Translations under genes and position numbers: made by a program | Notes under the pieces: model-generated | The model's database searches: none | Told to the model about the DNA's origin: nothing | The model's input: the letters and a program-made list of their open reading frames with translations, nothing else | Shown here: positions 53,245-59,237 of the stretch, in pieces | Layout of the letters: each line of letters opens with the position of its first letter | Numbering within the stretch: position 1 is the stretch's first letter | NCBI GenBank assembly: GCA_964016885.1 | Contig: OZ024746.1 | Coordinates: forward strand, 17,050,001-17,114,000 | Direction: 5' to 3' | Source of the DNA: Eledone cirrhosa | Taxonomy: Eukaryota | DNA: 64,000 bases

Positions 53245-53470
53245 ATGGTATCATGGAAAAGTTAGCCGAGAAGAAGCAGAATCTCTTCTGGCTGGACACA
53301 TGATAGGGTCATTCCTTGTACGAGAGAATGGCCATTACCCTGGGGATTACACCTTGTCACTAGTCATCCCTGGGGATGTAGTGGAGCACTATCGAGTGCT
53401 ACAGACAAACAATAAGGTTGAAGTCGATGGTGGTGATCTTCAGTTCGATACTCTACTGGAGTTAGTTGAG
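53245..53470 (+). CDS. CSK: CSK SH2 exon A, divergent alternative (WYHGKVSREEAESLL...FLVRENGHYPGDYTL...VEHYR...FDTLLELVE)
   Basis: TTTGTTGCAG|A TGG acceptor and GAG|GTATAC donor, 226 nt, phase 2-0, 75 uninterrupted codons. Keeps the Csk-type YPGDYTL and VEHY motifs. Confidence 0.9.
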
Positions 53471-55067
53471 GTATACTTTTCTTTGGAGATAACTTCCATT
53501 TCTTGGAGACACCTCCGGTCTTTCCATCGGAGCCGTCTCTCTTCTCAACACAATTTTCTTTGTTTTTAATTTATTATTAAACATTTGTGCATGTCTGCTC
53601 AGTTAGTGGAAATATTTTGCAGCTATTTATTACTAGTTTGTGGATAAACAACAAACCAAGGATAATTGCATTACCTTGCATCTTTGCTCTACTTATATTT
53701 TATGACTAGATGTGTCACTAAACCATGAGATAGCTACTAGAATATATATATATACAAATATATACATACATATTCAAATATTCACAACAATGTATATAAA
53801 CTACAGTGGACTTCATTTCAAAAAATAAAATATTTTTTCTTTTATTTCTTTAAACATTCAGTAATACCGTATTTAATCATGTATAAGTCGCAGCTTTTTC
53901 AAAGACAATACAATGTGTAAACCAGCATTTGACCTAGCTTCTGGATCTAGAAAACTTCACTTCAAAATATAAAGGACATTGTATGTTATATGTAAGGTTG
54001 AGGTGCAACTTATACATGAATATATATGGTGTATATATTTTTTTGCTCACCACTGTTGCATGTGCAGCAGTTATAAATCTGTCAGTGTTGGGTTTATTGA
54101 ATCACTTAGAAGCTTTGCAGATTTAATTAGAAACTAATTTGGCCAATAATTAAATTTCTGGAATATTTGAGTGTTAAATAATTAGAAATTAATTCTTGAG
54201 CTTGTAAAATGAAAATTAGTTTGTTTTGTTTTGTTTTTTTTTGTTTTTTTATTTATTTATTTTATTTATTCATTAATTTGTTTTGCTGCATAGAATATCT
54301 TAAGCAAGCTTCTTCACTTGTCTCTTCCATTCATATTTATTTAGGTATACTTTTTCATTATTGATACTTTAGGATTAACCTTCATTATGTACTTCTGTTT
54401 AAGTGTTATATAGAATTTAATTACATATAGTGGAAGAGCTAGTTTACCTGAATTTCCTTCTCATAAGAGTAATTCTTCATATTTTACATTGAAACAATCT
54501 CAAGTAGTTTGGAAATGTTTTCTCATCAAACAGAACCATGCTCTTCTTCAGGTTAAGTTTCTACGCTTTTGTATTATTTATTCTACAAATAATATAGATT
54601 GTCATTTGGCTATTTTCATTGTCTCCATTTTAAAAAGAAACATTCTTTTAGTCATGTTTCATCATATAGTGAATCCATCTTATGTAAATGTTCTATATTC
54701 ATATATTACACTCTTACTACATTTTATATAGGATAGGTCTGTAGATATATGTAGTTTATATATATACCATCCAACCCTTGCTAGCAGGGAAAGTGGATGT
54801 TAAAACAACGATTATATATATAACTTATTGAGTGTATTGCATCACACAAGATTCCTGTACCTTGGGTTTCATGAATAATTCTATTCATTCTTCAGCAGGC
54901 CTTGTTTAAGATAGTAAATAAAACGGAAATAAATCCTTTTTAAATAACCAACCCTGTTGAATGAGGAGAATATTAATGAAACCTGATGTAGACATACCCA
55001 ATAAATTGTCTATACTCTATCTGAATGTGTATGTGTATATTATTTATATATATATTATATATGTATC

Positions 55068-55109
<42 letters not shown>

Positions 55110-57137
55110 CACACATATATATATGATTAGACTTCTGAGTGAACATTCACTTTGCTGAAACAATGTAGCTATGTTGTAATAAAATGAGTAAATCAACCCA
55201 TATAATTAGCTCTATTATTAATATTGGGTTCTTCCTCTTTTGTGGACTAGTAAGATCACTAGATAAGAATGATATATATGAGTGTGTGTAAATAGATACA
55301 TTTGTATGTATATGTGTGTAGTAGTAGTAGTAGTAGAGGTAGTCTGTAACTCACGGGTTTATAGAAATTCTTTTACTGTATAATTATTGCTCAGAACAAC
55401 CAGCTTTGGTTTGTTAGATTCTTATCTTTGCCTCCCTCCTCTCCTTAAGCCCCTTCCATACTCTCATCTCATCGTTATTGAAAGATAGATATATGAAATG
55501 CCATAATGTTTGTGATCAACTGTAATAATTGGAATTTTTCCAAAGAAAACATAAATCATATTACCATTATTATTACCATTTAACTTGATGTGAATTCAAT
55601 TTTTGAAACAATTCATTCATTGCTACATTTCATACGTTCTGGCTTGGGAACTGATTGAATTTTTTGAAAAAAAATTTTAACTACAATTCCTTTGAAGAAA
55701 TTTTCAACCAACATCATTGGTTTCCTTTCTTTTTTATCTTATATCTCTATATATATTGGTTGTCCTGTCATATATCTATATATATATTTATATATATTGG
55801 TTGTCTCGTCATATATCTATATATATATATATATTGGTTGTCCCGTCATATATCTATATATATATATTGGTTGTCCTGTTATATTGTCGTAAGTCTTGGA
55901 TCTGTTAGTCATTATTTGGTTTATCTTGTCGTTTCTCTGGAATGTCAGTCAAATTGTTGTTTTATTTTTGTTGTTGTTATTGTTGTATTTTATTTTGTTC
56001 ATTAGTCTGTCTCTTGTGTTATCATTATATCTTTTATATGAAATCTTGTTGTTTATGACAGTTGTCTTTCAAAAGTGTAGTATGTATTGAAGAAAAAAAA
56101 GCAGATTTTTGCATACATACATACATACGCACAAGCACATTCTATCTGTCCTTCTCTTTCTGCCATACATACACACACCTCATGCAATACATACTTACAC
56201 TCACATATATCATCATCATCAATATACATATGAAGGAATATACATACATATGTTCTTGTATCTAAGAAAATATCTGCATATGCATATACAATTACACATA
56301 CAATACATTTGTTATTACAGTATATTCTGAATATTAAGAATTTCTATAAGAAATTAAATTGATAGTCAACTGTATTCCAGAATATATAGAAATAGATTCT
56401 CTCTTTGAAAGATTTCTATTCTGTTCTTTCTTGTTCATGGGTTTATAGTTGTAGAAGACTTCACTTATAGAAGACTCCTAATAATGGTGGAATCTGCAGT
56501 CAAATATTCTTGTACTGGGAATATATTACTTTTAGTTTCAGAGAGAGAGAAAGAATAAAGAATGATGATTGAAAGTTTTCATTTGGCTCATACTAATTAG
56601 TTAATTAGTATTAAAACAATAGAGTTCTCTTAATCATCATCACATTTGCTAAATATATAATTAGTTTAGTAAATAATAGCAATCACTTCTTGGAATGACT
56701 TCACTCATTAGACACATTAATAATAATAATAACAATAGTAACAGTGATGACCATTTGTACGCAAATTCTTTTCATTTATTTCATTTTATTTTATTTTTGC
56801 ATTTAATTTTTTCTTATTTTCTTTTTCATTTTTTTTTTTGTCTTTTTTTTTTTCGCTTTGGAATCTCACAGATGCAACCATCACCAGCCTGGATTCTAAC
56901 TGTTTTATTTTTACCACTGCCACCACCACCATCACCACCACTGCTGTCGCTGCCATCACAAGCAACAACCCTTGCCTCAAACCCTAACTTATCTAATATT
57001 CTTGGGATTCATTTATTTTTCAGGCATGCAGACATATTTACTTCTCGCTGGATTGAAATGCCTACTTAACTTTTGCCCTTGCCATTTTTCAGATTTGCAT
57101 GGATGTAGTTAGATTTTTGCACAACAGGCTGCTATTG

Positions 57138-57715
57138 AGTTAGGCAGTATCTTATATGTTAATGGTCAGGTGGCATCCTACATGTTAATGGTTAGGCAGT
57201 ATCCTACATGTTAATGGTTATGTAACATTCAACATGTTAATTGGTTAGGCAGCATTCTACATGTTAATGGTTAGGTGGTGTTTTACATGTTAATGATTAG
57301 ATGGCTTCCTCCATGGACATAGTCATGGTTTGATAAATCCTACATGAGTATGGTAGCCCATGTAATACCAGGCAATGTTCTACATAGTAACATTTAGGCA
57401 ACGCTCTATATGATATCAATTAGGCAGAATCATATATGATGTTATGCAGCTCTCTATATAATACCAGATAGCTATCACTCTGTGTGATATCAGGCAGTAT
57501 CAAACATGATAACAGTTAGGTAACATCCTACATGGTTATGGTAGCCAGTATCCTGTATGTTAACAGGCAATATTCTATATAGTAACACTTAGGTAGTACC
57601 CTATACAATATCAATCAAGCTGGTTAGACAGCACAGAACATAATTGTTTAGTAGTATCCTACATGGTAATGACAACCCATATCAAATGTGATAACTGTTA
57701 GGCAGTATTCTATAT
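57138..57715. repeat. Degenerate short-period tandem repeat
   Basis: Recurrent TTAGGCAGTATCCTACATGTTAATGG variants. Confidence 0.75.
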
Positions 57716-58653
57716 AATAAAACCACTTAAGCAGCACTTTTTTTATATTGATGTGCCATCAAATTTTCTGAGGTGTTATAGTGGGGCATGGAGCAATAAA
57801 GTTTAAGAAGCATTACATTAAATAATGTAACCCAGGTTAGACTAAATCTGGAAATGAAAAGATAGTCATAGCTGGAGTGCCTTTGATTATAGGTCTGCTT
57901 GATCATGACTGACCCAGGGTTAAATAACAACAGCTATTCAGTTCTTAGGTGGGATATATAAGTAGTTATATCTACTGAAAACCATCTTATGTTTTTGTGT
58001 GGTTGCTAAATATGACATTGGAAACTCACCCTAGTCTTTGAGGTTGACTCATGCAGAATATTCTTTGATTAGGTAAAGGCTAGTAGAATTTTAACACATT
58101 ATGTTAACCCCTTTGAAATAAAACCATGTGAAACTATCTCTGGTTCTATGATATAAAACTGTTTATTATAAAGTGTTTATATTTATCTATAATCCTTCCA
58201 TCATAATTTTAAGATGCTTTGTTGTTTCAAATATCAGCTTAATGATGAGAAAGGTAGTTTTTCCACTAAATCTCTCTAACTTGTTGATTATTTTCAGAAT
58301 GATTTGAAAATCATAGGCATAGAAATATGGTAACGAAAGGTTAATCAGTAGACTGGAAGTTCAGAAGAGCTGAAATGGCCAGTTCAGGTTTAAGTTAATG
58401 AAATAGGCCCCTCCTAACTCTATGTACCTAAGGTTACCTGCGTATTACAAATAGATAAAAACTAAATCTACTGGAAGCTTTCTTCAGATTATTGTGTAAT
58501 AGCTAAAGAGGGGATAGGGAACCCACCCCACGGGGTTTATCCTGTAGCGACTCTATGTAGAGTATCATCTGAAGTCAGCTGGATATATAGTCTAAAGAAA
58601 CCCTTTTGGTGTTAAAGTCTATGATGGGAATAGGTTCGGTCAATATATGTATG

Positions 58654-58710
<57 letters not shown>

Positions 58711-59017
58711 AATTAATCTCTTGTTTTTTAAGCTGCTAAAATTTAAACAGATTAATTTTATTTTTTTATGATTTGTTTTAATGTATTTAATAAATACCAA
58801 TGAAAAAAAAAAAATTGGGTTTATTAACCATTTTTCAAAACAGCTGTTCATTTTCAGTTCTGCAATATTACCTAAAACTTACTAATAAACCCTTACTTTC
58901 AAGGAGAGGAATGAAAATCATCCTGGGTTATATTTTCTTGCTTGAGAATTTCCATGATTGGCCATTCTGGTACTGTTAAACCCTTGTGTGATGTGTAAAT
59001 CTGCCCGGTTTTTGTAG

Positions 59018-59237
59018 ATGGTTTCATGGAAAAATCACACGTCAAGAAGCTGAAGATCTTCTTAAAATGATGGAAGATGGCTTGTTTTTACTGCGAGAAA
59101 GCCAGAATTACCCCGGAGACTACACATTGTGTGTGTGTCACCAGAGGAAAGTTGAGCATTACCATATAGTCTACTTCAACAACAAATTAACTATAGATAA
59201 GGAAGTCTTCTTTGACAATCTACCACATTTAGTTGAG
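59018..59237 (+). CDS. CSK: CSK SH2 exon B, canonical ([15 protein letters not shown]...[17 protein letters not shown]...KVEHYHI...FDNLPHLVE)
   Basis: TTTTTGTAG|A TGG acceptor and GAG|GTACAT donor, 220 nt, phase 2-0, 73 codons. About two-thirds identical to human Csk SH2 as recalled. Confidence 0.96.

Follow-up and report, generated by a model that had tools for sequence, protein, structure and literature searches.

Src-family kinases are restrained chiefly by Csk, an enzyme that is both placed and switched on by its SH2 domain. We analysed a CSK gene in a 64,000-nucleotide stretch of the genome of the octopod Eledone cirrhosa (the window; G000:C6:17050001-17114000 of a 3.0 Gb genome), where two homologous SH2 exons, exon A and exon B, lie in tandem. 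As far as the available portions of the cited articles go, three described systems resemble this arrangement. FYN, another cytoplasmic tyrosine kinase, carries tandem-duplicated, mutually exclusive homologous exons that give the tissue-biased isoforms FynB and FynT (PMC9741552). Vertebrate Csk and Chk/MATK provide two Csk-family SH2 domains with different properties beside a similar kinase (PMC10016382). In invertebrate calcium channels such as Ca-alpha1T and cacophony, two-way swaps of tandem exons have persisted for over 500 million years, and molluscs too have one of these swaps (PMC9741552).

At the locus described here, a single CSK gene very probably uses its tandem-duplicated SH2 exons in a mutually exclusive manner. 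This reading rests on the logic of the reading frame, on full conservation of the exon A protein across octopods, and on annotated A and B isoforms in 11 mollusc species.

Two SH2 exons in one octopod CSK gene

Exon A (226 nt) and exon B (220 nt) are both open, with the edges TTGCAG/ATGG...GAG/GTATAC and TTGTAG/ATGG...GAG/GTACAT, respectively. Both have AG and GT borders, a first base that precedes a Trp codon, last residues LVE and phases running from 2 to 0; the exon upstream of them finishes CC/GT. A first-pass annotation of the window had reported two intact SH2 exons with these positions and phases, and they are present as described. It had counted 36 of 75 identical residues by hand (about 48%); the proteins are indeed about half identical, although the computed count is 37/75 (49%, E 1e-22). 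Both exons pass the Pfam SH2 cut-off of 21 bits (A, 70.2 bits; B, 86.9 bits), but, as a correction to that annotation, neither is a whole SH2 domain. In 1k9a numbering, each exon supplies CSK residues 82-154, some three quarters of the domain, from betaA to mid-alphaB; the last part of helix alphaB is encoded, together with the BG loop, by the constant next exon. The best solved match of exon B is the CSK SH2 (E 3e-28). The top single-domain match of exon A is likewise CSK (about 63 bits), which tandem-SH2 proteins outrank solely by summing two domains.

The consequences of each splicing choice were examined by a frame test. Joining the upstream exon through A, or through B, to the next exon was stop-free in both cases. 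Splicing A to B ran into an early stop, the TGA listed in Table 1, and skipping both exons led to a stop within the next exon, at codon 72/90 of the tested junction; both outcomes agree with the first-pass annotation. Because A and B are each 3n+1 nucleotides long, the frame is lost when both are included or both are skipped, and this happens well before the later junctions. By an established rule, premature stops upstream of later junctions lead to nonsense-mediated decay; with six junctions downstream of the stops, the both-in and double-skip products should be decay targets.

The surrounding gene is, judged by its sequence, an octopod CSK. We mapped its exons by tBLASTn with Octopus bimaculoides CSK (P0002) over the window and the next 200 kb (264 kb). 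The map gave an SH3-SH2-kinase architecture with CSK as the best solved match, and seven constant exons, kinase exons included, lie 11 to 22 kb past the window end, the one next to B at G000:C6:17125236. Members of the Csk family phosphorylate the C-terminal tail of Src-family kinases and are not known to have a C-terminal regulatory tyrosine tail of their own. An activation loop without tyrosine is a further family mark in the available part of PMC10016382, and the activation-loop exon, the last exon and P0002, read directly, have neither an activation-loop tyrosine nor the tail.

No SH3 or kinase exon was found between A and B by tBLASTn, and a profile scan of the 264 kb found no further SH2 exon within the gene; the four SH2 exons detected are A, B and two in separate downstream copies. 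These results argue for exon duplication, as the first-pass annotation had held, rather than duplication of the gene. The locus does duplicate, since downstream of it lie a partial copy in inverted orientation and a CSK-like gene that has diverged, which might make exon A a neutral relic or a leftover of whole-gene duplication. That explanation is scarcely credible given the lack of SH3 and kinase exons between A and B, the absence of any change among 75 residues across four named octopod species (0/75), and the intact state of exon A across three mollusc classes.

Table 1. Positions in the window of the CSK exons and of the stop codon reached by joining exon A to exon B.
Feature	Position	Strand	Basis
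SH2 exon A, the derived alternative of mollusc type, with VDGGD as EF loop and Tyr133 missing	53245..53470	+	ORF, splice edges, Pfam
SH2 exon B, canonical CSK-type alternative	59018..59237	+	splice edges, Pfam, best solved match CSK SH2
TGA (premature stop), reached only when A is spliced to B	59051..59053	+	frame test
Constant exon (phase 0 to 0) with the first half of the CSK SH3	19189..19305	+	tBLASTn with O. bimaculoides CSK P0002; weak SH3_1 match, under Pfam cut-off
Constant exon (phase 0 to 2) with the second half of the CSK SH3 and the linker to the SH2	45397..45497	+	34/34 identical to P0002 residues 48-81

A and B isoforms across molluscs

Exon A is 75/75 identical in gene models of O. 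bimaculoides, O. sinensis, O. vulgaris and Argonauta hians, and the comparison with relatives that had been proposed as a check thus found it intact and not disrupted. For exon B, 2 residues differ between the window and the three Octopus species, all of which have annotated B isoforms. A cephalopod-like genomic read-through, P0210, is 85% identical to exon A.

A search with the B isoform (best 120 of 542 matches; 20 clusters opened) revealed, among the matches listed, full-length single-SH2 models with A and with B from one gene in at least 11 mollusc species: the three Octopus species, Argopecten irradians, Ruditapes philippinarum, Dreissena polymorpha, Ostrea edulis, Magallana gigas, Pomacea canaliculata, Littorina saxatilis and Patella caerulea. 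They cover three classes, with octopods (cephalopods), bivalves and gastropods all represented, and Argonauta adds an A-plus-kinase model. In 14 of 15 isoform pairs there are zero differences outside the exchanged segment, and the remaining pair differs only in the first 20 residues; the pairs are gene models, not cloned cDNAs. These models support the proposal that one gene makes two Csk isoforms. The swap, put forward for this animal, stands there, but its extent had been underestimated, as members of three mollusc classes have it. RefSeq/GenBank already contain both sequences, without remark, as automatic numbered isoforms (e.g., XP_014781693.1, XP_011416693.1, XP_025077023.1). RefSeq alternative isoforms usually rest on transcript evidence.

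Both types occurred together in only four of the fetched proteins (Mya, Mizuhopecten, Pinctada and P0053). In these proteins A precedes B throughout, which is also the order in the window, and residues have been added or lost where the two exons meet; we read them as probable gene-model errors in which alternatives were mis-joined. They amount to an annotation trap, since such models present fused alternatives as apparent multi-SH2 Csk proteins. A krill protein with two SH2 domains (P0049) was considered as the same swap and rejected; its arrangement is SH2-SH3-SH2, with two B-like domains.

B alone was seen in Aplysia, Mytilus, Haliotis, Pecten and others, which the B-based search could explain. 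None of 83 named non-mollusc CSK-like proteins among the matches listed was A-type. Only five of the 83 are lophotrochozoan (Lingula, Owenia, Lamellibrachia and two from Watersipora), with no chiton sampled, so confinement of the A-type to molluscs is provisional. A wider search of 1.84 billion representatives (best 150 of 1123 matches) gave two cephalopod matches and ten short A-type read-throughs among the matches listed.

Some clams go further. Ruditapes and Dreissena have a three-way cassette (A, B1 and B2) with a second duplication of the B exon, and Mya has B1 and B2 models plus A within its fused model (P0044, P0074, P0167, P0069, P0173, P0068 and P0204, from Mya, Ruditapes and Dreissena); B2 has His111 in common with A. 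Forms of 411-413 aa (P0030, P0046, P0170, P0172) also occur among the Octopus and Ruditapes models; the one that was aligned, P0030, is without the first SH3 exon. The N-terminus varies as well, with no fewer than three alternatives (P0002, P0032, P0036).

Use of exon A and the proposed basis of exclusion

Several observations weigh against either-or use of two exons in a full-length kinase. Splicing from A to the kinase rests on automatic gene models. Among 33 contig-derived mollusc proteins (Logan/ENA), 32 had a spliced SH3-to-SH2 junction; 31 of these used B, a count biased by the B-based search from which the clusters came, and one, the oyster-type P0235, used A. P0235 documents the junction from the upstream exon to A in an assembled contig, but not that from A to the kinase; it runs from A into intron-like sequence and ends ten residues on. 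The predominance of B (31/32) suggests that A is the rarer form. A search of sequencing runs with exon A listed no RNA run that contains it, which we count neither for nor against its use.

P0232 (a UniRef model, 168 aa) and P0235 (Logan, 170 aa) are both oyster-type proteins with SH3 and SH2-A and a stop ten residues past exon A, and may represent a kinase-less form or partly spliced RNA. Their early ends, together with the count of 0/32 A-plus-kinase proteins among the spliced contig-derived set, are what one would expect if A were mainly a terminal or decay-triggering exon that yields a kinase-less SH3-SH2 fragment or lowers the CSK level. We regard this as highly improbable. The read-through tail after A is unconserved, both between octopods (window versus P0001) and among oyster-type matches, which argues against a functional terminal exon; such an exon would also miss half of helix alphaB and the BG loop. 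Moreover, the donor position and phase of A are kept across classes, and A-plus-kinase models exist in the 11 species and Argonauta.

Under mutually exclusive use, the constant SH3/linker exon would be spliced to A or to B, and either would then continue into the constant exon with the remainder of helix alphaB, the BG loop and the SH2-kinase linker. B, probably the more common form, would retain the SH2 of the ancestral CSK, with A a rarer and probably tissue-restricted form. If nonsense-mediated decay clears the both-in and double-skip products, no dedicated exclusion structure would be needed.

In Dscam-type exclusion, competing intronic base pairing adjoins each alternative exon. We found no docking/selector pairing here by inverted repeats or duplex energies, a result that may count against the either-or reading. 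Between 45300 and 64000, the 25 longest of 455 inverted repeats consisted of dispersed repeats and (TA)n runs, and the best duplexes of 100-nt flanks with the three introns lay near or inside the range of shuffled sequences (12 comparisons, 3 shuffles each; largest excess <2 kcal/mol). Incompatibility of U12-type splice sites was also considered and is unsupported, with best branch-point matches of only 5-6/8; the exon A donor resembles, with a mismatch, what we take to be the U12 motif.

The donors of A (GTATAC) and B (GTACAT) are far from the usual GTAAGT, which the constant exons mostly fit. A similar donor in the downstream CSK-like paralogue suggests that they may be ancestral. Directly before exon A, the 11 intron codons at window 53212-53244 translate identically in the octopod read-through P0001. 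The same segment contains an additional TAGCAG 19-22 nt upstream of the exon A acceptor, a possible regulatory element.

Age and orthology of exon A

The SH2 tree that had been suggested was constructed from 61 rows and 73 columns, including 17 A rows, with 200 bootstrap trees; the SH2 of the divergent paralogue was omitted for its very long branch. All 17 A rows lie on one side of a branch (support 91/90) in 87% of the bootstrap trees. With the CD and EF loop columns removed, bivalve and gastropod A still group together (99/97). As far as these data go, A certainly predates the split of bivalves and gastropods.

The cephalopod sequences are less firmly placed. Their A pair has a long stem (1.73 changes per column), and without the loop columns cephalopod A leaves the A group, with which it stays in only 6% of bootstrap trees. 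The window A averages 54% identity to other A rows versus 49-51% to B/outgroup rows, and cephalopod A has states of its own (N109, E108, E127). These features would accord with a separate origin of cephalopod exon A, its likeness to bivalve and gastropod A being due to convergence or long-branch attraction. However, cephalopod A shares with the others the derived E139-V140-D141-G-G-[DE], H111, S119 and loss of Y133, and likewise sits upstream of B; a clade of cephalopod A and B is also rejected, though only at the margin (p-AU 0.049). We therefore consider a separate origin quite improbable. From the shared derived residues and the exon order and position, we infer that cephalopod A is orthologous to bivalve and gastropod A, and that the duplication would predate the split of octopods, bivalves and gastropods. 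The splits of cephalopods, bivalves and gastropods are Cambrian.

Residues that distinguish SH2-A from SH2-B

We compared the 17 A rows with 43 non-A rows. R89, R107, G114, D115, H128 and Y129 are kept in all rows, so that A retains the SH2 marks of the phosphate-binding Arg107 and His128 (17/17). An EF loop of the form [VI]DGG[DE], with a one-residue insertion, occurs in 17/17 A rows versus 0/43 others. His111 is found in 17/17 versus 3/43, Tyr133 in 0/17 versus 36/43 and N148 in 7/17 versus 35/43. Cephalopod A also has a one-residue (proline) insertion in the CD loop and the change S109N. Ser109, two residues past the arginine, is a phosphate contact in SH2 domains; both cephalopod A rows have Asn at this position, and Ser is present in the remaining A rows (15/15) and in the non-A rows (43/43). 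A structure model of the A isoform has a complete SH2 (pLDDT 75-88 over residues 81-170) in which helix alphaB (151-160) crosses the exon junction, with 1k9a as best fold match (54% identity). The model is unreliable in its kinase part (mean pLDDT 57, pTM 0.29, 10 sequences), and SH2-kinase contacts were not read from it.

In the available parts of earlier studies, the EF and BG loops govern SH2 positional specificity (PMC3507883), E127 separates the specificities of Csk and Chk (PMC10016382), SH2-kinase coupling involves Y133, E147, N148, M150 and E154 (PMC10016382), and a two-glycine insertion in the CD loop lowers Csk activity with CBP activation unchanged (PMC3764022). Set beside these, A-type changes fall on the coupling residues Y133, N148 and M150, and in cephalopods also on the CD loop. 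With the remodelled EF loop and the loss of Tyr133, and with Arg107 and His128 kept, it is rather likely that A has other phosphoprotein docking partners and differs in how ligand binding is coupled to the kinase; we infer that A would alter both partner choice and kinase tuning.

Residue 127 is acidic (Glu/Asp) in both types and the BG loop is common to both, so their specificity may differ less than assumed. Exclusive exons that share the same SH2 partners, with the swap mainly setting basal activity or ligand-triggered kinase activation, would suit these constants, the presence of Arg89, Arg107, His128 and Tyr129 in both types, and the changes at the coupling positions and the cephalopod CD loop. 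We think this somewhat unlikely, as the A-specific change that varies least affects the EF loop, a specificity element. More tentatively, and with the scales tipped slightly against it, shelled molluscs may have retained, from a time before the split of cephalopods, bivalves and gastropods, a splice switch that offers a second Csk SH2 with a new phosphopeptide preference (through the glycine-rich EF loop) and weaker ligand-triggered activation (through the loss of Tyr133), with three choices in some clams. If so, tissues would choose, from one gene, where and how Src-family kinases are braked.

Neighbouring gene copies and repeats

An inverted, tail-to-tail partial copy of the gene lies at G000:C6:17152702-17160839 on the minus strand (L010-L011, L002). 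It spans exon B to the last exon, is 91-99% identical in aligned blocks, and is without the SH3 exons and exon A; its splice sites are intact. The intron after B measures 16 kb in the CSK gene and <1 kb in this copy. With 14 amino-acid-changing versus 4 silent codon differences and a moved stop, the copy looks to be under relaxed selection; it may also be an assembly artefact. A divergent CSK-like gene follows at G000:C6:17183319-17198846 on the plus strand (L004, L013-L015). Its SH2 exon edges likewise run from phase 2 to 0, the SH2 is 33% identical to B, and its kinase exons have HCD replacing HRD; tBLASTn of the downstream region found no SH3 exon for it.

Within the window, a minisatellite of ~720 bp (51573-52291), with a 37-nt unit, a 144-nt higher-order period and 98% matches, lies 1 kb upstream of exon A. 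A six-frame listing also showed transposon-like fragments in introns at 3568-4394, 15641-16894, 20911-21414, 24714-25895 and 5487-5924, which we take to be LINE reverse-transcriptase elements and mariner-type transposase.

Comparison with known systems

The first-pass annotation knew of no description of alternative SH2 exons in Csk, and we likewise found no account in open PubMed Central and bioRxiv full text, although supplement tables or subscription papers could list them. The A/B swap is thus apparently undescribed, and it looks very old. The RefSeq/GenBank mollusc CSK models hold A and B, but their names say nothing on homology, exclusivity, conservation or function. A natural isoform pair that differs only in the SH2 is a ready-made experiment on loop specificity and SH2-kinase talk, and the A form points to a candidate mollusc docking partner of its own.

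Tandem duplicated mutually exclusive exons are a known class, of which a swappable Csk SH2 is a new case. In the available parts of the sources, each of the systems named at the outset differs from it. In FYN the exchanged exons encode the SH2-kinase linker and the beginning of the kinase domain, whereas the mollusc CSK swap covers the SH2 core from betaA to mid-alphaB (PMC9741552); it also sits, in molluscs, in Csk, the inhibitor of Src kinases, and CSK has 0 occurrences in the main text of that article. Csk and Chk arose by whole-gene duplication, in contrast to the exon swap in one mollusc gene, and their difference in specificity is ascribed to Glu127 versus Ile, a position that is acidic in both mollusc types (PMC10016382). 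The swaps in Ca-alpha1T and cacophony tune ion channels, and none of them exchanges a phosphotyrosine reader (PMC9741552), as the mollusc CSK swap does.

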